From assembly GCA_964513075.1 (NCBI GenBank), contig CAZELR010000006.1:5031-69030 (forward strand): DNA of 64,000 nt, in the 5' to 3' direction. How positions within the stretch are numbered: position 1 is the first letter of the stretch; each line of letters begins with the position of its first letter. The notes beneath the pieces are model-generated. The model made no database searches. It had not been told where the DNA came from and was given only the letters and a program-made list of their open reading frames with translations. Position numbers and translations under genes: made by a program. The DNA is from an uncultured Anaerolineales bacterium. GTDB taxonomy: Bacteria > Chloroflexota > Anaerolineae > CG2-30-64-16. Positions 43,775 through 52,552 of the stretch are shown here, piece by piece.

Positions 43775-46048
43775 CTACCCAACCATGCTGAGTCCAATCC
43801 GCCCGCGCTCACGGTCAATGCTGATCACGGTGACATCGACCACGTCGCCTACACTCACTACCGCGTGTGGGTTCCGCACGAACTGCTTGGCCATCTTGCT
43901 GACGTGCACCAGCCCATCCTGTTTGACGCCGATATCGACAAAAGCGCCAAAATCAACAACGTTACGCACCGTGCCCTTCAGAACCAGCCCCTCGGCCAAG
44001 TCGTCAATGCTCAGCACGTCGCGGCGCAGGATCACTGGCGGTAGATCTGAACGCGGGTCGCGGCCCGGCCGCAACAACGCCTCCACGATGTCATGCAAAG
44101 TCGGCTCACCGATGCCGAGAAGCGAGGCGGTGGCCGACCAAACATCGGTCCCATTTTCCTCGCACCACTTTCGAAGCCGCTCCGGGAGGTCATGCATGCG
44201 CAGGTTCAGGCCTGCAAGCTCTAGCAGCGCCCTGGTGGCGTCATAGCTCTCCGGATGGATCGTCGTATTGTCCAGTGGGTTGCGACTATCCGATACACGC
44301 AGGAAGCCGGCGGCCTGCTCGAACGCCTTCGGTCCCAGTCCTTTCACCTTCTTGAGTTCGGAGCGCGAAGCAAAGGGGCCATTTTCATCCCGGTGTGCGA
44401 CGATGGCGCCTGCCACCTTCTTGCTGATGCCCGCCACGTAGCTTAGTAGCGCCGCTGATGCAGTATTGACGTCAACACCAACATAATTGACGACTGACTC
44501 CACTACCGCATCTACCGCCCCGGCCAGCGTCTTCTGGTCCACGTCGTGTTGATAGAGGCCCACACCAATGCTTTGTGGATCAATCTTGACCAGCTCGGCC
44601 AATGGATCCTGCAACCGCCGGGCGATCGAAACCGCGCCGCGCATAGAGACGTCCAGATCGGGGAACTCAGCGCGAGCCACATCGGACGCGGAGTAAACCG
44701 ACGCGCCCGCTTCACTGACCATCACATAAGCAAGATGAGACGCAGTCTGCACACGGCTGGACGCGGACGAACGCGGATTATCTTTTTGATCTGCTCTGTG
44801 TGAATCCGTGTGAATCTGTGTCCCCTGAATCAACTCCGCGACTAACGCCTCGGTCTCACGACTGGCAGTGCCGTTTCCGATGGCGATCACGCTGATCCGG
44901 TCCTGGTCGATCAACCCAGCAAGAATGTGCAGCGATTTGTCGCGGTCGTTGCGCGGCTCGTGGGGGTAGATCGTGGCTGTGTGTAGCAGCTTGCCGGTGG
45001 CATCTACTGTCGCCACCTTGCAGCCGGTACGGAAACCAGGGTCGATACCCATCACAGCGCGCTCCTTCAGCGGCGGCTGGAGCAGCAAGTTGCGCAGATT
45101 GGCTGCAAAAACCTGGATGGCATGATCATCAGCGTAATCGCCCAACTGCCCACTCACCTCGCGCTCAACCGAGGGGCGTAGGAGGCGCTCGTAGCCATCT
45201 TCAACGGCCAGGCGCACCTGCTGTCCCGCAGCCGTTGCCGGCATTGCAATCCAGGCCGCGGCCACATCGTTGACGATGGAAGCATCAGGGGTTTCGATAG
45301 TCACCTTAAGGCTGCCGTCCGCCGCTCCTCGCTTGAGCGCCAACCATTGGTGCGGCTGGACTGCTCGGAGCGCAGTGCGGAACTCATAATAGACGCGATA
45401 ACGCCCCTCCTTATCAGCATCATCGTCCGCGCGCCGGCTGATGACGAATCCCTCCGCGGCGAAACGCCGGCGCACCAGGCCCCGCGTCGACGCATCGTCG
45501 CTCGCCTGCTCCCCAAGGATATCGCGCGCACCGGCCAGGGCAGCCGCCGCATCCGGCACCTGGTCGGTAATATACTCCGCAGCCCATTGTAGGGGCGATC
45601 CCTCCATGGTCGCCGTGGCAGAGGCAGACACGAGGGCGCCGCCTCGACATGCGGCCAGTAACACCTGCGCCAGCGGCTCCAACCCGCGCTCACGCGCGAT
45701 TTGGGCGCGAGTCTGGCGCTTGGGCTTATAGGGGCGGTAGAGGTCCTCCACGGCCTGAAGCGTAGCTGCAGCGTCCAGTTGCGCGGCCAGTTCGTCAGTC
45801 AGCTTGCCCTGCTCGGTAATCTCAGCCTTCACCGCTACCTTGCGTTCAGCCAGCTTGCGCAGGTAGTCCAGTCGGGTTTGGATGTCCCGAATCTGCACTT
45901 CATCCAGCCCGCCGGTAACCTCCTTGCGGTAACGCGCAATGAAGGGGATGGTGTTGCCGTCGTCCAGGAGCCTAACGGTGGCAGTGACCTGGGAAACGGA
46001 AATCTTAAGCTCGTGAGCGATGAGTTCGTTGATGGGAGGTAGAATCAA
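43775..46048 (-). CDS. tex: Tex-family transcription accessory protein (YqgF-like, HhH and S1 domains)
   Basis: Motifs IPFIARYRKE.TG.LDE, GIDPGFRTGCK, IGNGTASRETE, EAGASVYSAS, LQDPLAELVKIDP, FGAFVDIG. Confidence 0.95.
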   Translation of the reverse strand: MILPPINELIAHELKISVSQVTATVRLLDDGNTIPFIARYRKEVTGGLDEVQIRDIQTRLDYLRKLAERKVAVKAEITEQGKLTDELAAQLDAAATLQAVEDLYRPYKPKRQTRAQIARERGLEPLAQVLLAACRGGALVSASATATMEGSPLQWAAEYITDQVPDAAAALAGARDILGEQASDDASTRGLVRRRFAAEGFVISRRADDDADKEGRYRVYYEFRTALRAVQPHQWLALKRGAADGSLKVTIETPDASIVNDVAAAWIAMPATAAGQQVRLAVEDGYERLLRPSVEREVSGQLGDYADDHAIQVFAANLRNLLLQPPLKERAVMGIDPGFRTGCKVATVDATGKLLHTATIYPHEPRNDRDKSLHILAGLIDQDRISVIAIGNGTASRETEALVAELIQGTQIHTDSHRADQKDNPRSSASSRVQTASHLAYVMVSEAGASVYSASDVARAEFPDLDVSMRGAVSIARRLQDPLAELVKIDPQSIGVGLYQHDVDQKTLAGAVDAVVESVVNYVGVDVNTASAALLSYVAGISKKVAGAIVAHRDENGPFASRSELKKVKGLGPKAFEQAAGFLRVSDSRNPLDNTTIHPESYDATRALLELAGLNLRMHDLPERLRKWCEENGTDVWSATASLLGIGEPTLHDIVEALLRPGRDPRSDLPPVILRRDVLSIDDLAEGLVLKGTVRNVVDFGAFVDIGVKQDGLVHVSKMAKQFVRNPHAVVSVGDVVDVTVISIDRERGRIGLSMVG
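44751..44823. repeat. In-frame inverted micro-repeat element (period 10) in tex
   Basis: Left arm ACACGGCTGG/ACGCGGACGA/ACGCGGATTA; right arm CTGCTCTGTG/TGAATCCGTG/TGAATCTGTG; 17 of 20 positions pair on +. Confidence 0.8.
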
Positions 46049-46108
46049 AATGGAAGCTCCGTTCGCGTCAATATGCCCGGCACTCTCGAAAAGCGCCGGC
46101 CAAGCAAA

Positions 46109-48832
46109 TCACCCCTTCACGCGCTTCTGTAATTCATACAGCTTGTTGAGCGCGGCCAGCGGACTGAGGCTATTCACGTCGAGGGCGCGCAGCTCAGCAA
46201 TCACCGGATCTTCAGCGGAGAAAAGCGGGAGCTGGTGTAGGGTGGCAGGCAGAACCGAACGCCGCGGGCCAGCCGCGCCGGAGGCTTCCAGATCGGCCAA
46301 AATTTCCTGGGCGCGGGCGATCACCGGCTTAGGCAGACCGGCAAGCTGCGCCACATGAACACCATAAGAGCGGTCGGCTGCGCCGGGTGCAATCTTGTGC
46401 AGAAAGACAACGGTTTCGCCTTGCTCGGCCACGGCTACATTGAAGTTGACCACATGCGGCAGCCGCTCGGCCAGGTCGGTCAGTTCGTGGTAATGCGTGG
46501 CGAACAGCGTCTTCGCACGCAGGCCGGGGTGATTGTGAATGTACTCAACAACGGCCCAGGCAATCGCCAGACCATCATAAGTGCTGGTGCCGCGACCGAT
46601 CTCATCGAGGATCAGCAGCGACCGGCTGGTGGCATGGTGCAGAATGTTGGCAGCCTCCACCATCTCAACCATAAAGGTCGATTGGCCGCGTGCAATCTCA
46701 TCTGAGGCACCGATGCGGGTGAAGATGCGATCCACGAGCCCGATGTGCGCCGACTCGGCCGGCACGAAAGCCCCGATCTGTGCCAGCAGCACGATTAACG
46801 CCACCTGCCGTAGAGCCGTCGATTTGCCGGCCATATTGGGGCCGGTGAGGATAATGATGGCCTGTTCGGGTGAGAGGTACGCGTCGTTAGGCGTGAAAGG
46901 CTCCCCGGTCAGAAACTTCTCCACCACGGGATGCCGACCGGCCTTGATATCGATAATGCCGTCATCAGCCAGCCTGGGACGAATGTAGCGATTTACCTCA
47001 GCAACCTCAGCCAGCGCCGCAGCAACATCCAGGTCGGCGACAGCCGCCGCGATCGCAAGCAGTCGAGGCGCAGCCGCCGCGATCTGGGCTAGCACCCCGC
47101 GAAAGATCTGCCCTTCCAATTCCAGGATGCGTTCCTCAGCGTTGAGCACCAGTGATTCGTATTCCTTCAAGTCCGGCGTGATGTAGCGCTCCGCATTGAC
47201 CAGTGTCTGCTTGCGAATGTAATCCGCCGGCACCAGGCCGGCGTTGGCGGTGGTGACCTCGATGTAATAACCAAAGACCTTGTTGTAGCCAACCTTCAAC
47301 GACTTGATGCCAGTGCGCGTCCGCTCGACCGATTCCAGGTTAGCGATCCACATCTTGGCGTCGCGCGTAGCAAGATGAATACCGTCCAACTCGGCTGAAA
47401 AACCGGGGCGAATGATCCCGGTCGTGGCCAACGTCGCGGGCGGGTCGTCGGTAATGGCCTGCGCGAGAAGCGTGGCAATATCGGGGCAGGATTGAAGGTT
47501 CAAAGTTGAAGGCGGAGGGTCAGCGTTGATTGATCTTTCAACTTTTAGCTTTGAGCCTGTAGCCTGTAACTGATCTACGCGAGCCAACGCTTCGCGGATG
47601 CCCAACAGGTCACGCGGAAGTGCAATGCCCTGAGCGCAGCGGTTGGTCCAGCGCTCCAGGTCGCCGAGACCGCGCAGGACTTGGCGAAGCCCGGCGCGCA
47701 AGATGCCGTCTTGCTGCCAGGCAGCCACGGCGTCGAGCCGAGCATCGATAGCCGCGACATCCAGCAGCGGCTGACTAAGCCGCTTGCGCAGCAGGCGGCC
47801 GCCCATCGGGGTCAGGGTAGCGTCCAATACCCCCAAGAGTGAGCCTTGGGTGGAGCCGCCGCGGAGACTCTCGGTCAACTCCAGGTTGCGCCGCGTGGCC
47901 TCGTCAAGGGTCATGAACTCGGATGTGCTGTAAGTGCGCAAGCCGGCAAGCTGGGGCAGGCTGTCTTTTTGCGTTTCCTGTAGATACTGAAGCAGCGCGC
48001 CCGCGGCCCGAACCGCCAATGAACTATCGTCACAGCCGAAACCGGCCAGGGATGCGGCCCTGAAATGATCGAGCAGCGCCTGGCGCGCAGTGGTCTCTTC
48101 GAAGCGCCAGGCCACGTAAGGGGTAATATGGTAGGCTTGGGCAATCTGCACCGGCAGGGCATCGGAGGGATGGCGCTGGAGGCGCGACGCGGTTTGCGCG
48201 CTGCGGCCTTCGGGGCCACCCGACGACATGCCGGGCTCCTCTGTGCCTCCGCTCCTCTGTGCCCAGCGCGGGTCTTTGGCAGGATAAAGAAGCTCCGCCG
48301 GCGCCAGCCGGCTAAGCTCCTCAGAGACGCGGCGCAGGACATCCGCGCCATTGGCAATCTCAGTGACCGCAAACTCGCCGGTGGTGATGTCGGCATAGGC
48401 CAGGCCAGCCCTGAGCAGACGGCCTGTCGGCTCTGAGTCGAGCACCACCGCTACAACGTAATTGTTGCGCTTCTCAGACAGCAGCCCCGGCTCCACGAGG
48501 GTGCCGGGCGTCACGACCCGCCGCACGATGCGCGGCACTAGCTTTTCGCCTTTGGGAGGCTCATTGCCAAGCTGCTCAGCGATAGCTACCTTGTAACCGG
48601 CGTTGATTAGCTTGGCAATGTAGGTGTCGACCGCGTGGTAGGGCACACCGGCCAAGGGAACGCGCTGGTCCGCGCCCACGGGTCGCGAGGTGAGCACAAC
48701 ATCACAGACCGACGCGACAAGCTTGGCATCGTCATCGAAGGTCTCGTAAAAGTCACCCAGGCGGAAGAAAAGCACGATATCCGGGTACTGTTTCTTCAAC
48801 GCCAGGTACTGGGAACGCATAGGTGTCGTCAT
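46109..48832 (-). CDS. mutS: DNA mismatch repair protein MutS
   Basis: Motifs FFRLGDFYETF, GPNMAGKST, DRIFTRIGA.D....GQSTFMVEM, DEIGRGTST, FATHYHEL, SYGVHVA.LAG. Confidence 0.97.
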   Translation of the reverse strand: MTTPMRSQYLALKKQYPDIVLFFRLGDFYETFDDDAKLVASVCDVVLTSRPVGADQRVPLAGVPYHAVDTYIAKLINAGYKVAIAEQLGNEPPKGEKLVPRIVRRVVTPGTLVEPGLLSEKRNNYVVAVVLDSEPTGRLLRAGLAYADITTGEFAVTEIANGADVLRRVSEELSRLAPAELLYPAKDPRWAQRSGGTEEPGMSSGGPEGRSAQTASRLQRHPSDALPVQIAQAYHITPYVAWRFEETTARQALLDHFRAASLAGFGCDDSSLAVRAAGALLQYLQETQKDSLPQLAGLRTYSTSEFMTLDEATRRNLELTESLRGGSTQGSLLGVLDATLTPMGGRLLRKRLSQPLLDVAAIDARLDAVAAWQQDGILRAGLRQVLRGLGDLERWTNRCAQGIALPRDLLGIREALARVDQLQATGSKLKVERSINADPPPSTLNLQSCPDIATLLAQAITDDPPATLATTGIIRPGFSAELDGIHLATRDAKMWIANLESVERTRTGIKSLKVGYNKVFGYYIEVTTANAGLVPADYIRKQTLVNAERYITPDLKEYESLVLNAEERILELEGQIFRGVLAQIAAAAPRLLAIAAAVADLDVAAALAEVAEVNRYIRPRLADDGIIDIKAGRHPVVEKFLTGEPFTPNDAYLSPEQAIIILTGPNMAGKSTALRQVALIVLLAQIGAFVPAESAHIGLVDRIFTRIGASDEIARGQSTFMVEMVEAANILHHATSRSLLILDEIGRGTSTYDGLAIAWAVVEYIHNHPGLRAKTLFATHYHELTDLAERLPHVVNFNVAVAEQGETVVFLHKIAPGAADRSYGVHVAQLAGLPKPVIARAQEILADLEASGAAGPRRSVLPATLHQLPLFSAEDPVIAELRALDVNSLSPLAALNKLYELQKRVKG
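47492..47569. repeat. In-frame inverted heptamer-repeat element in mutS
   Basis: TTGAAGG TTCAAAG TTGAAGG, 22-nt spacer, CTTTCAA CTTTTAG CTTTGAG CCTGTAG CCTGTAA. Confidence 0.8.
48158..48263. repeat. In-frame hairpin with 16-bp tandem repeat in mutS
   Basis: GCTCCTCTGTGCCTCC/GCTCCTCTGTGCC tandem at 48235-48263; 48245-48263 pairs with 48158-48183 via bulged helices. Confidence 0.55.
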
Positions 48833-48833
48833 A

Positions 48834-51137
48834 TTACGCGCCCAACACTACTTGTCCATAGGGATCGCCGTAGAGCACATAGGCTAACCAGGTGGGATTG
48901 GCGGCATCAGCCTGCTTGATAGCCAGACGCGCCGCGTGAAACGCCTGGCCAAGCGGTTGCTGTTTCCCCTCAAACGCGCCGAGGCCCCACAGGCGATCAT
49001 AGAACTCCCGGGCGAACTGTGCGGCCAGCACGTCATTCACCTCCCAGAGTGCGCCGAGGAAGGCGCTAGCCTCACAATCAAGAAACGTCTCGGCCCAGCC
49101 GCCCAGCTGCGTCAGGCCGATGCCCACCCGCCCGGAATGGCAAGCATTAAGAAATACAATGGGCTTGCTCTTGCGAATATACGGCTTTAAGGCGCCAACT
49201 GCAACAGGGGTCAGGAACTCGCTTCCCAGTTTGAGCTTCGACTCGTTGGCGCTGTCAGCGTTGAAGTTGCCATGACAGGCAAAGTGATAGAGATGGGTGC
49301 GGCCGGCCTGCAGAGCATCGTTAACCTCATCCAGCGATTTGAGCGGACCGCTGAGGCTGACCTCCCACTGACGACGATGCAGCTCGGTAAAGTAATCGGA
49401 CTCGGCCTGGGCAGCCTGCAGGTTGTCGGGCGGCGCCACCCACACGCCCTGAGTAAGCTTCACGCGGTCGGGCGCGCCGCGGCCGGCCACCCAGCGCGAG
49501 AGCCGGAACGTCTCGCACAAAGGTGGGTCGGTCGGCACCTCCCAAGGTTCATCCTCGCCCGGATCTTGCGGCGTAACCAACTCCCAGGGAATCCATGGAT
49601 CGTCTGTAGTAACCAGCATACTTTGCCCACGATATTTCTGGCGCAAGACCTTGCTGTATTCACGTTTCAGCTCATCCGAGAAAAGCTGATCGTAAAGCTG
49701 CACGCCGATAGCGGACAACTCCTGGTTCGCACGCCGCGTCTCGTCGGCAGGGCGCGTCGCGACCGATTTTTTGGCCAGGTCACTGAGGCGATTAAAGATC
49801 GGCTGCAGGAAGGTCAACGGATCGTCTCGCAGCAACTTCGTGCCGACCCGCTTGAAGTTGTAGTCGCCGCCCCCGGGCGAATGCAGCATGTAATCCAACG
49901 TCTTACGGTCAGCCGAAAGCATGATGCGCAGCTCCAGGTCAGGCGCTCTCGCCTCTGTGCCCAGCACCGGCGAGGCAATCGGCGCCAGCGGCACCACAGC
50001 GTTGGTCAATTGCTTCATCGCGGCTGCGTCTTCTACCACCTCGGCCTCGAACGAGACCGTCAGTATCCGACGACTGAACTGCTCAAAGTCTACGCTAACG
50101 CGCTTCGTTCCGGCCGACTCCGGCTTGAGAAAGAAGATCAGAGGCTCGCAGTCGCGCTCTTTTTCGATCTTGACCTGTCGAGCATAGGAGCCAACGCCGC
50201 TCACCGCTTCACCGCCGATGGTCTCATCGGTCACCTCAAAGCCCTCCGGCCGGATGACAACTGTCAGCGGGCTAAGTTTAAGGCTCATGCGAGCCTCATC
50301 GGCAATGCCTCTGGCGCCGGATTGAAAATGACCGGCCACATGGACAATCAACGGCACAGCGCCCTGATCAATCAGCACTTTGTTGGGGAAGTGGACGTTA
50401 GCGTAGCGGATCACATCGTCGGCCACCGGTTCAAGCGAACGGGTTTCAGTGATCCCGTACGATGGGGAGATCGGCGCCTTGGCAACAGGCCCGGCGCCTC
50501 CTAACGATGGCGGGAATATCCCACCGCGCGTCTGCTGGCCGGGAGCCCACATCTGTGCATCCCGATCATCCAGGAGCCGCACGACGCTGGGATAGCCACG
50601 CAGCAGGACCTTGATAGCCCGCAGGTAGGCCTCAGCAACCGCGCGGTCAACAGCGCGCTCCGAATGGGCTGCACGTAGTGCGCTAAGCTGCGCCAGTTCG
50701 TCGCCGGCAAGACGCGCCTGATGCGTCTCGACCAGTGCGTCGATCTGGGCGGTCAGGCCGATCGGATCACGATACCGGCGAAATTCTACAATGAATACCA
50801 TGCGCTGCAAGACAAGCTCGCGCTGTTCTGCGGATAGCGAACCGACTCCGCCAACACCCCGAGAGCCAAGCCTGGGCTGAAGGCTCACCTGGCCGCCCTC
50901 CAATAATCCCGTCACCTCGGCAGGCAGGGCTTGCCGCACCGGCCAGAGGGTGTTGAGGAACGCGCTGGCCGAACCGGCCGCGTTGATATCGTCTTTTGTG
51001 GCGATATCCGGCCCATACTCGCGCACGGCCTCCTCAATTACGCTACGAACCTCTACCGGCAGCGTCGGCCACGCGGCCAGAATGCCGTCAAGGATTGGGA
51101 TGATTGCGTTTGATACGGCTGCTGCTGCAAAATTCAT
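48834..51137 (-). CDS. CHAT (caspase HetF-associated) domain protease with N-terminal helical region and central beta-rich domain
   Basis: Motifs PWIPWEL, HFACHG (His622), VFLNACHS (Cys666), FLGALWEVND, WLAYVLYGDP. No signal peptide or TPRs. Confidence 0.88.
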   Translation of the reverse strand: MNFAAAAVSNAIIPILDGILAAWPTLPVEVRSVIEEAVREYGPDIATKDDINAAGSASAFLNTLWPVRQALPAEVTGLLEGGQVSLQPRLGSRGVGGVGSLSAEQRELVLQRMVFIVEFRRYRDPIGLTAQIDALVETHQARLAGDELAQLSALRAAHSERAVDRAVAEAYLRAIKVLLRGYPSVVRLLDDRDAQMWAPGQQTRGGIFPPSLGGAGPVAKAPISPSYGITETRSLEPVADDVIRYANVHFPNKVLIDQGAVPLIVHVAGHFQSGARGIADEARMSLKLSPLTVVIRPEGFEVTDETIGGEAVSGVGSYARQVKIEKERDCEPLIFFLKPESAGTKRVSVDFEQFSRRILTVSFEAEVVEDAAAMKQLTNAVVPLAPIASPVLGTEARAPDLELRIMLSADRKTLDYMLHSPGGGDYNFKRVGTKLLRDDPLTFLQPIFNRLSDLAKKSVATRPADETRRANQELSAIGVQLYDQLFSDELKREYSKVLRQKYRGQSMLVTTDDPWIPWELVTPQDPGEDEPWEVPTDPPLCETFRLSRWVAGRGAPDRVKLTQGVWVAPPDNLQAAQAESDYFTELHRRQWEVSLSGPLKSLDEVNDALQAGRTHLYHFACHGNFNADSANESKLKLGSEFLTPVAVGALKPYIRKSKPIVFLNACHSGRVGIGLTQLGGWAETFLDCEASAFLGALWEVNDVLAAQFAREFYDRLWGLGAFEGKQQPLGQAFHAARLAIKQADAANPTWLAYVLYGDPYGQVVLGA

Positions 51138-51162
51138 AATCGCGCTCCTCGACGTGACACTA

Positions 51163-52452
51163 TCAAAAATCGCCGTTCAACCACTGCACCAAACGGTTCC
51201 AACCCGTAACTTGCGGAAACATGAGCTCGCGGTAGATCACCAACTCCTTCTGACGCTGGCTGAGCGGCTTGGTCTCTGGAGGCAAGTAGACCGCCAGTCC
51301 AGTAGCTCGCTCGTACTGCGGCCGATAGGCAACCCGGAGCACCGGCGCCGCAGACGTGCGCGCCTGCAAATGCGCGTAGAGAGCCCGGGCTGCCGTATTC
51401 ACTTCGGGGTAGTTCTCCCACTCGGTCTTGCTCGCCAGGAGGCGCGCAAAATCTCCCAGGTCGCAGTAGTTGCGATCCTGGAAGACGAGCGCCTCGCGAC
51501 GGGCGGCCCTGGCGAGTTCATGAAGGACTGCTTCCTGCCCGCGCGCCAACACTACATCCACCAGCATCCTGGCCAGCGCTTCGGTCTCCTGTATCGCTGA
51601 CAGGCGAATGGCAGACTGGGTGACGGTTTCATCCTGCCGGGTTTGTGCGTTGTAGCTTTTGGCGTAATCCCGCACAATGCGATCGGCCAGTGCTTCGGGC
51701 GTCATCCCTGGCTCAGCATTGATGCCTTGCAGGATCAGCGTATATGGCCAACCGTCCATTGGCTCCACTTCCTGCGACCCGACAAAATAGTCGGCATGCT
51801 CAGCCAACTCGCGAGCGCCCTCAACCATAGCCATAAGACACGCATCCATGCCGATGATGTCCAGCTTGCGGCTCGTAATGGCCTCTGCCTCTCTAAAGGC
51901 CCGATGCAGGTCTTTGGTGTCCAGAAAATCCTTGCTGGTGTCATCGTATGCGATGGGCCGGGTGGTCTCGCCCTCGGTTATCTTGCGCAACGTGCTGCGA
52001 AAGAGCGCGCCGTGGGTCTTGTGCGTGGTATCCCCAATATCGCGCACAGACTCATAATGATCCACGTCCAGCCAACCTGTACCGTGATTCCAAATCACCA
52101 GAGCAAAGTGATCGGCCGGATAGTGCTGCATGCCATGCACCACGAAGTCCCTCAAGGTGTCAGGACTGCCGGTGTTAATCTCCTTCAGCTTCTGCACAAC
52201 GCTGCCCGCCATGCCGATACCCTGGCGCACCTCCACCAAGTAGCTTTCGTCCACAGTATCGAATAAGCATACCACCGCGCATGCGTCGGTGGTGCCCACC
52301 TTCGCCATCTCCCAAATATCCTTATAGCCGGCCGACGTCATCTCGGCCATCAGCTTTTTGACGCCAGTCGCAGTTTGAAAGGCCTTACCGTTGTCACCGG
52401 CCATGTAAACCATCAACGTCCAAGGGCGCTTTTTTTGTGGGACGGGCTGCAT
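51163..52452 (-). CDS. Clostripain-family (C11) cysteine peptidase, no signal peptide
   Basis: Motifs WTLMVYMAGDN, INTG.P.TL..F, LVIWNHGTGW (His123), IAYDD, IIGMDACLM (Cys205), SQEVEP..GWPY. ATG 52452 follows AAGGAG. Confidence 0.9.
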   Translation of the reverse strand: MQPVPQKKRPWTLMVYMAGDNGKAFQTATGVKKLMAEMTSAGYKDIWEMAKVGTTDACAVVCLFDTVDESYLVEVRQGIGMAGSVVQKLKEINTGSPDTLRDFVVHGMQHYPADHFALVIWNHGTGWLDVDHYESVRDIGDTTHKTHGALFRSTLRKITEGETTRPIAYDDTSKDFLDTKDLHRAFREAEAITSRKLDIIGMDACLMAMVEGARELAEHADYFVGSQEVEPMDGWPYTLILQGINAEPGMTPEALADRIVRDYAKSYNAQTRQDETVTQSAIRLSAIQETEALARMLVDVVLARGQEAVLHELARAARREALVFQDRNYCDLGDFARLLASKTEWENYPEVNTAARALYAHLQARTSAAPVLRVAYRPQYERATGLAVYLPPETKPLSQRQKELVIYRELMFPQVTGWNRLVQWLNGDF

Positions 52453-52552
52453 CGGATGCTCCTTTTGGGTTACAAGCAGGGCCAATATGCGTTGACGCAA
52501 GACGTGCCACCAAGCCATCGGTCACCTCCGCCGGTGATGTCGTGCTGGTGCG

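Follow-up and report, generated by a model that had tools for sequence, protein, structure and literature searches.

Our subject is a pair of adjacent cysteine protease genes in a 64,000-nucleotide stretch of DNA (hereafter, the window) from contig CAZELR010000006.1 of an uncultured Anaerolineales bacterium. The names of homologues place the locus in Anaerolineae, Chloroflexota. Both genes are on the minus strand. The first encodes a clostripain-family (C11) peptidase and the second, after a gap of 25 nucleotides, a protease with a CHAT domain. The start of mutS is 1 base past the CHAT stop, and tex is next. Coordinates are listed in Table 1. A preliminary description of the locus had proposed that a recurring (T/S)-R motif is a processing code shared by both proteases. 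Five instances were named: ETTR↓PIAYDD in the C11 peptidase (the arrow marks the bond to be cut) and GSR93G, QTR204G, ETR233S, and ATR462P in the CHAT protein. All five are present. We conclude that there is no shared (T/S)-R code, and that the apparent motif is a composite of unrelated things.

The C11 peptidase retains the family activation arginine

Residues of the C11 protein are numbered from M23 of the longest open reading frame (ORF), which is the real start. Most homologues are 425-431 residues long, and an AAGGAG sequence is found 7 nucleotides ahead of the ATG at 52452. The numbering used previously (R165 and P166) is thus correct. The protein has the features that define family C11: the domain, the catalytic dyad, the S1 aspartate, a basic residue at the activation site, and the fold. 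Its match to Pfam PF03415 scored 145.5 bits, against a cut-off of 25.8, and the only match in an NCBIfam scan, to clostripain, was far below threshold. An AlphaFold2 model, with a predicted local distance difference test (pLDDT) score of 82, was compared with known structures using Foldseek. Template modelling (TM) scores were 0.6-0.7 to C11 structures 6mzo, 6n9j, and 9cip (E = 1.7e-17 for 6mzo and TMq 0.64 for 9cip). In an alignment of 68 homologues, WNH123G and MD203AC205 are invariant, or nearly so, and align with the equivalent parts of PmC11, thetapain, and clostripain. The equivalents of D203 are D177 in PmC11 and D229 in clostripain, where this Asp determines specificity for Arg or Lys at P1 (PMC4850288). 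Since this S1 residue is invariant, an Arg-specific enzyme would be expected. The protein has no signal peptide and is, therefore, cytoplasmic.

Activation of several C11 peptidases has been mapped. Clostripain is cut at R181 and R190, so removing a nonapeptide, and R190 is equivalent to the self-cleavage site of PmC11, K147↓AFGQD (PMC4850288). In globupain, the cuts are at K144↓GVCWD and K137 (PMC10104074). Thetapain is cut at R147, and iotapain at several positions of the same loop (10.1101/522870). In a profile of the 68 homologues, the clostripain sequence nprlnR190↓AICWDDS aligned, column for column, with egektR↓PIAFDDS. Hence, Arg165 is at the family activation position, as first suggested. 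In the model, it is within a low-confidence segment (residues 138-174, pLDDT <50) between the catalytic His and Cys.

Conservation of the site was determined in two sets of sequences. One contained 121 close homologues. The other contained 86 sequences, from the window and 85 related loci of several phyla, including Anaerolineae, Caldilineae, cyanobacteria, Nitrospirae, and Geobacter. Arginine is at P1 in 120/121 and 85/86 sequences, respectively. The sole close homologue without it, P0086, has also lost the catalytic cysteine and the P1' proline. At P2, 115 of the 121 close homologues have Thr (110) or Ser (5), and 74 of the 86 have Thr (49) or Ser (25). This frequency, 86-95%, fits the preference for small polar P2 residues reported for thetapain, iotapain, and other C11 enzymes (10.1101/522870). 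The P1' position is less uniform: Pro (115) and Ala (5) among close homologues, and Pro (35), Ala (32), Gly (14), and Trp (5) in the multi-phylum set. The proline is a trait of the Anaerolineae clade, outside of which P1' is Ala, Gly, or Trp, and not a property of the site. It had been suggested that this residue might block self-activation. That idea is weakened by clostripain, which hydrolyses an Arg-Pro(NHEt) bond with ~95% efficiency (PMC13709457); so, a C11 enzyme is not necessarily blocked by a proline at P1'.

As a separate observation, P0086 (469 residues) resembles a pseudo-peptidase. Another residue is in place of the catalytic cysteine (MDLALMA), WNHG is altered to WGHG, and T-R-P is S-L-L.

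Five Chloroflexota loci have a C11 gene directly followed by mutS, with no CHAT gene (L004/L014, L021, L025, and L042). The C11 proteins encoded carry the same K/V/Q/T-T-R-P-I-A-F-D-D site. Since T-R-P is equally conserved in this situation, it is intrinsic to C11 and does not belong to a dialogue between the two proteases. We also considered an acidic residue at P4 ([ED]-x-T-R, in 82/121) as marking a separase-like ExxR site cut by CHAT. This was rejected because C11 proteins without a CHAT neighbour have the same pattern.

A second arginine, R137 (in YESVR), is invariant and found 27 residues upstream of Arg165, at the onset of the low-confidence segment; R152 is nearly invariant (both in the 68-homologue alignment). 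HMMER pairs YESVR with YSYLR↓SFGQ of the Bacteroidetes zymogen 6mzo. By analogy with the linkers excised from clostripain (9 residues) and globupain (7 residues) (PMC4850288, PMC10104074), this clade may excise the 27-residue stretch between R137 and R165, making it a candidate excised or autoinhibitory peptide.

A single arginine of the CHAT protein resembles a functional site

The CHAT protein matches Pfam PF12770 with a score of 57.4 bits (the cut-off is 24). A sequence search of the PDB found no match, and a fold search alone succeeded: the top Foldseek matches to the CHAT fold are TPR-CHAT/Csx29, with a probability of 1.0. Both H622 and C666 are invariant among homologues. The AlphaFold2 model was built on an 18-sequence alignment and has a pLDDT of 70. 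It consists of an N-terminal helical module, a disordered linker, a beta-sandwich, further helices, and the CHAT fold (Table 1). With the N-module alone, Pfam gave no match at E <= 1; the beta-sandwich had only a sub-threshold match to DUF7363. The four arginines are placed as first described. R93, R204, and R233, like the C11 arginine, are in segments with pLDDT <50, and R462 is in an interhelix loop.

Arg204 was aligned in 28 sequences. Besides the window protein, these were 8 homologues identified earlier and 19 representatives newly obtained when a profile was searched against 1.84 billion cluster representatives. All have the N-module, and identity extends down to 29%. Arginine is kept in 27 of the 28, making this the top conserved column between L172 and V248. 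With an Arg frequency of 5.9% nearby, such conservation cannot be chance, even allowing for 3-residue sliding by the aligner. The distance from Arg204 to L172 is 30.4 +/- 4.2 residues, and that to the next domain is 44 +/- 29 residues (range 22-178). The residue following the arginine is mostly G, S, or D. The region has a pLDDT of ~27. On the basis of this conservation, Arg204 is the only CHAT arginine that resembles a functional site, namely a conserved Arg followed by a small residue, where the N-module ends.

A more distant group of CHAT proteins (L034-L038, L040-L041, and L048) has a different N-terminal module. Past the N-terminal helices, these have a recurrent [TA]-[KR]-G-x-x-x-R-G-G stretch, which may be a counterpart of R204-G-G that the aligner did not place.

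The other three arginines behave differently. Among 18 close homologues, 9 have Arg at position 93, and T/S is not favoured at P2; distant homologues have the loop shortened, deleted, or free of Arg. Position 233 is Arg in about 8/18, and in close relatives only. Both are lineage-specific arginines in disordered loops. Arg462 is present in 17/18 close homologues, varies below ~45% identity, and is not preceded by a conserved T/S. Because the surrounding helix-loop-helix is generally conserved, this says little, and we see no sign that Arg462 is a processing site.

The recurring motif is a composite

Considered as a recurring motif, (T/S)-R is weak. The two proteins contain 10 [TS]R dipeptides, compared to 8.6 in shuffled sequences (P = 0.35). 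Five had not been listed previously: SR217K and TR294Q in C11, and SR356R, TR468R, and SR548W in CHAT. The narrower pattern [TS]R[GSP] occurs 5 times, against 1.5 expected (P about 0.02), with the pattern having been chosen post hoc, after the data were seen. Similarly, the CHAT linker across the family contains 16 [TS]R dipeptides, where 12.5 are expected, and any such dipeptide is found in only 10/28 sequences. A suggested test was whether (T/S)R(G/S/P) is conserved in otherwise variable linkers. This holds for the arginine at position 204, and fails for the residue ahead of it (T or S in 5/28 only) and for R93 and R233, which most relatives lack. What remains is a known feature of the C11 family and one new candidate site in the CHAT protein.

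Table 1. Coordinates of the protease genes, protein regions, and residues described. Positions are those of the window.
Feature	Position	Strand	Details
C11 (clostripain-family) cysteine peptidase gene	51163..52452	-	429 residues from M23; Pfam PF03415, E = 3.9e-42
C11 longest-ORF extension, 22 codons, MAWWHVLRQRILALLVTQKEHP	52453-52518	-	Absent from most homologues; overlaps Shine-Dalgarno of the ATG at 52452
C11 catalytic His123 codon	52084-52086	-	WNH123G context
C11 inter-chain linker, Arg137 (VR) to Arg165	51958..52044	-	27-residue insert compared to Bacteroidetes C11s
C11 ETTR↓PIAYDD, predicted zymogen-activation site	51940..51969	-	Arg165 (Arg187 of longest ORF) codon 51958-51960
C11 D203-A-C205, catalytic Cys and S1 Asp	51838..51846	-	D203 invariant, C205 nearly invariant (68-homologue alignment)
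CHAT-domain cysteine protease gene	48834..51137	-	767 residues; Pfam PF12770, E = 2e-15
CHAT N-terminal helical module, residues 1-198	50544..51137	-	Helices 5-190 in AlphaFold2 model, pLDDT 82-94; no known family
CHAT loop 87-97, inside N-module	50847..50879	-	Holds R93; pLDDT <50, disordered
CHAT Arg93 codon, GSR93G	50859-50861	-	Disordered loop 87-97
CHAT disordered linker, residues 199-239	50421..50543	-	Holds R204 and R233; pLDDT 25-31; length and sequence hypervariable among homologues
CHAT Arg204 codon, QTR204G	50526-50528	-	N-module/linker boundary; candidate processing site
CHAT Arg233 codon, ETR233S	50439-50441	-	Linker 199-239
CHAT beta-sandwich, residues 241-368		-	AlphaFold2 model
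CHAT helices, residues 440-501		-	AlphaFold2 model; R462 in 457-463 loop
CHAT Arg462 codon, ATR462P	49752-49754	-	Loop between helices 440-456 and 464-485, ahead of CHAT fold
CHAT fold, residues 506-767		-	AlphaFold2 model
CHAT H622 codon	49272-49274	-	
CHAT C666 codon	49140-49142	-	

The protease pair is part of a conserved gene neighbourhood

The order C11, CHAT, mutS (and then tex) spans positions 43775-52452. Adjacency of the C11 and CHAT genes is kept in dozens of loci from Anaerolineae and Caldilineae, with CHAT identity ranging from 91% to ~31%. Loci with C11, CHAT, and mutS in this order are L001, L002, L007-L033, L040-L041, L048-L049, L061, L064, L067, and L071-L073. The upstream flanking genes, for Impact_N, PGA_cap, and dynamin-like proteins, and uvrA, are also the same in relatives with 80% and 41% CHAT identity. 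This looks like vertically inherited synteny of the core-genome, or housekeeping, type (uvrA, mutS, and tex), and not a mobile defence island. Because C11-mutS loci without CHAT exist, the link between C11 and mutS is wider than that between C11 and CHAT.

Occasionally, the two proteases are fused. At L023:5971-9531 there is an in-frame C11-CHAT fusion, with an ORF of 1186 residues, in which ...WLLGEF runs into TRRLE and then the CHAT start, MTYRHET. The loss of the stop codon may be real or a sequencing error, making this a candidate fusion. In addition, P0148, a 1211-residue representative, has a CHAT match at residues 470-1206. The pair is old, widespread, and sometimes fused, so functional coupling of C11 and CHAT, beyond adjacency, is likely. 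Long ORFs at L064 and L031 were rejected as fusions, being read-through in a frame other than that of the C11 gene; L023 alone is truly in frame. We likewise rejected split CHAT genes (L003/L026, L032, L033, and L073) as evidence of separable modules, since these are on long-read contigs of metagenome-assembled genomes and are probable frameshift errors. In one example, L003:9276-11623 (on a contig shared with L026), the CHAT gene is split into ORFs of 295 residues (N-module) and 516 residues (beta-sandwich and CHAT). The two ORFs overlap within the low-complexity linker, and a frameshift is the probable cause.

Note that eight cyanobacterial loci (L039, L043, L051, L054, L055, L057, L059, and L065) encode C11 proteins with 36-40% identity and the site E/D-S-R↓A-I-A-F-D-D. 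Often, a distant CHAT-like gene (22-30% identity) is within ~5 kb, without mutS. Hence, association of C11 and CHAT may extend past Chloroflexota. A literature search for a C11 and CHAT pair in Chloroflexi returned nothing relevant.

A model for processing and its alternatives

Our preferred explanation, which we consider probable, is that Arg165 is a zymogen-activation site in C11, that Arg204 is a candidate processing site in CHAT, and that nothing marks the remaining three arginines as sites. By homology, the C11 protein would be a cytoplasmic zymogen of the clostripain family, activated by a cut after Arg165. This cut, perhaps with another at Arg137, would separate a light chain containing His123 from a heavy chain containing Asp203 and Cys205, and so free the active site. 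Most likely, an Arg-specific protease would cut CHAT at Arg204, so that the N-module is released from the rest of the protein, the beta-sandwich and CHAT body. For this protease, the co-transcribed C11, with its D-x-C S1 pocket, would be the best candidate.

Several points weigh against this explanation. At the C11 site, P1' is a proline, which most proteases disfavour at this position, and tolerance is documented for clostripain alone. Alternatively, cleavage in this clade could be at Arg137, Arg152, or Arg156, or the enzyme could remain a single chain. At the CHAT site, P2 is mostly hydrophobic (M, L, Y, V, or F), while thetapain and iotapain favour small polar residues (10.1101/522870) and PmC11 does not accept Val (PMC10104074). 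Assignment of segments in CHAT as disordered is a soft call, given a model with a pLDDT of 70 made from 18 sequences. Finally, the constant spacing between Arg204 and an aromatic anchor, W197, also suits a structural or docking role.

Such a role is central to an alternative in which CHAT is not processed at all. Here, Arg204 would be a pseudo-substrate, or a salt-bridge anchor, holding the tail of the N-module to the CHAT body or a partner, and the Arg-Pro bond of C11 would be uncut, or the enzyme cut only at other arginines of the loop. In its favour are the fixed spacing from W197 and the hydrophobic P2. So too are the proline at P1' in C11, the use of several alternative loop sites by iotapain (10.1101/522870), and the N-A-C sequence at the S1 position of CHAT. 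Conversely, the segment around R204 is unpacked in the model (pLDDT about 27), and the G, S, or D that follows is typical of P1' in substrates of Arg-specific clan CD enzymes. Furthermore, the C11 arginine is invariant across phyla and lost along with the catalytic cysteine in P0086, which fits a role linked to catalysis. We regard an unprocessed CHAT protein as possible, though doubtful.

Could Arg204 be a self-processing site of CHAT, cut in cis or in trans, with C11 uninvolved? Clan CD enzymes commonly self-process, as do metacaspases and separase, and the metacaspase, paracaspase, and separase enzymes are Arg-specific (PMC4357240). Arg-specific bacterial caspase-like enzymes also exist (10.1101/2024.10.24.620036). 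In addition, CHAT has an invariant residue, E699, 33 positions past C666, a spacing that might match the S1 Glu of MALT1. However, Arg-specific members typically have an Asp two residues before the catalytic Cys. In CHAT, this Asp is replaced, in the L-N664-A-C666 motif, by an Asn that is invariant in 48 homologues. Hence, the D-x-C of Arg-specific clan CD enzymes is absent, and specificity of CHAT for basic P1 residues is unsupported. The preliminary description had taken cleavage after basic residues as a property of CHAT-type enzymes. This is not general; for the characterised CHAT proteases of Craspase, the cleavage sites are A↓S, L↓D, and M↓K (PMC11106740). Self-processing is, in our view, improbable, and C11 is the better candidate for cutting Arg204 because of its D-x-C motif, set against the N-A-C of CHAT and the behaviour of Craspase.

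The original proposal went further: cuts at R93, R204, and R233, specified by a shared (T/S)-R-(G/S/P) code, would free N-terminal modules and activate CHAT, with proline holding C11 inactive until a trigger. In its favour, [TS]R[GSP] describes the C11 site and every one of the four CHAT sites, three of the four CHAT sites are in low-confidence loops, C11 enzymes are reported to favour a small polar P2, and the proline is almost constant in close homologues. Against this, the longer pattern was defined post hoc and the shorter is at chance level, the residues that would specify the code are missing from most CHAT relatives, T-R-P persists in C11 proteins where CHAT is absent, and clostripain cuts Arg-Pro. 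The proposal was to stand or fall by conservation of the motif among homologues, and such conservation is lacking. We consider it very improbable.

Returning to the preferred explanation, Arg165 and Arg204 could be steps of a larger scheme. In this, C11 and CHAT would form a two-step, intracellular, initiator/executioner cascade, whose genes are inherited vertically in Chloroflexota and transcribed together with mutS: C11 self-activates at Arg165, cuts Arg204, and removes an inhibitory N-module. As a whole, this scheme is rather unlikely. If true, it would be a cascade that uses C11 and CHAT in place of caspases, in a core-genome neighbourhood of DNA repair genes, not a defence island. Two simpler messages follow. 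Intracellular C11 proteins of Chloroflexota keep the activation arginine of clostripain, in an almost invariant Thr-Arg-Pro context. Moreover, CHAT has one sharply conserved arginine, where the N-module ends, so that a single mutant of the four proposed is left. Note that trypsin does not cut Arg-Pro bonds. Hence, cleavage between Arg165 and Pro166 would give a clean proteomic read-out.

Comparison with known systems

The two proteins have counterparts in characterised protease systems. In cascades of the SAVED-CHAT to PCaspase type, there are, as here, two adjacent clan CD proteases, one of which may activate the other, and the Arg-specific member is cytoplasmic. The likeness is loose. In our pair, the Arg-specific enzyme is C11, not a caspase-like C14 protein, and the genes are in vertically inherited housekeeping synteny. 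PADLOC identified no system at the locus; C11 had no match, and CHAT had only a weak match to BovA (E = 2.6e-4). In the window and its relatives, no SAVED, TIR, Cas7-11, CRISPR, or Thoeris genes are beside the pair, the neighbours being those described above. We thus found nothing to place it among anti-phage cascades of the type III-B SAVED-CHAT/PCaspase, type IV Thoeris, or Craspase kinds.

For the CHAT fold, the best match by structure is TPR-CHAT/Csx29, of Craspase. In both, the protease is preceded by a helical regulatory module at the N-terminus. Unlike Csx29, the N-module in the window is not TPR, and there is no Cas7-11 partner. Craspase also differs in that it cuts Csx30, at the non-basic sites noted above, and in not being itself activated by cleavage.

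Resemblance is closer for C11. PmC11, thetapain, iotapain, fragipain, and PdC11, from Bacteroidetes, and the archaeal globupain share its fold. In these enzymes, the loop that follows the catalytic His contains one or more Lys or Arg activation sites (K147, R147, K152/R154/R172, and K137/K144), and the small polar P2 preferred by several matches the T-R of the window. By contrast, those enzymes act extracellularly, being secreted or lipid-anchored, whereas the window C11 is intracellular and its gene shares a conserved operon with mutS and a CHAT protease gene.

Clostripain itself (Hathewaya histolytica; MEROPS C11) has ~16% identity to the window protein. Both have a His/Cys dyad and a D-x-C S1 Asp, and both have a basic residue directly ahead of an I-x-x-D-D strand (R190↓AICWDD and R165↓PIAYDD). 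The two-site activation of clostripain, at Arg181 and Arg190, has a parallel in the second conserved upstream arginine of the window C11, R137, and the P1' Pro found there is tolerated by clostripain. Unlike clostripain, the window protein has neither signal peptide nor propeptide. The candidate linker is 27 residues, rather than 9, and P1' is Pro rather than Ala. We conclude that, in cytoplasmic location and in the proline at P1', the window C11 departs from the studied members of its family.

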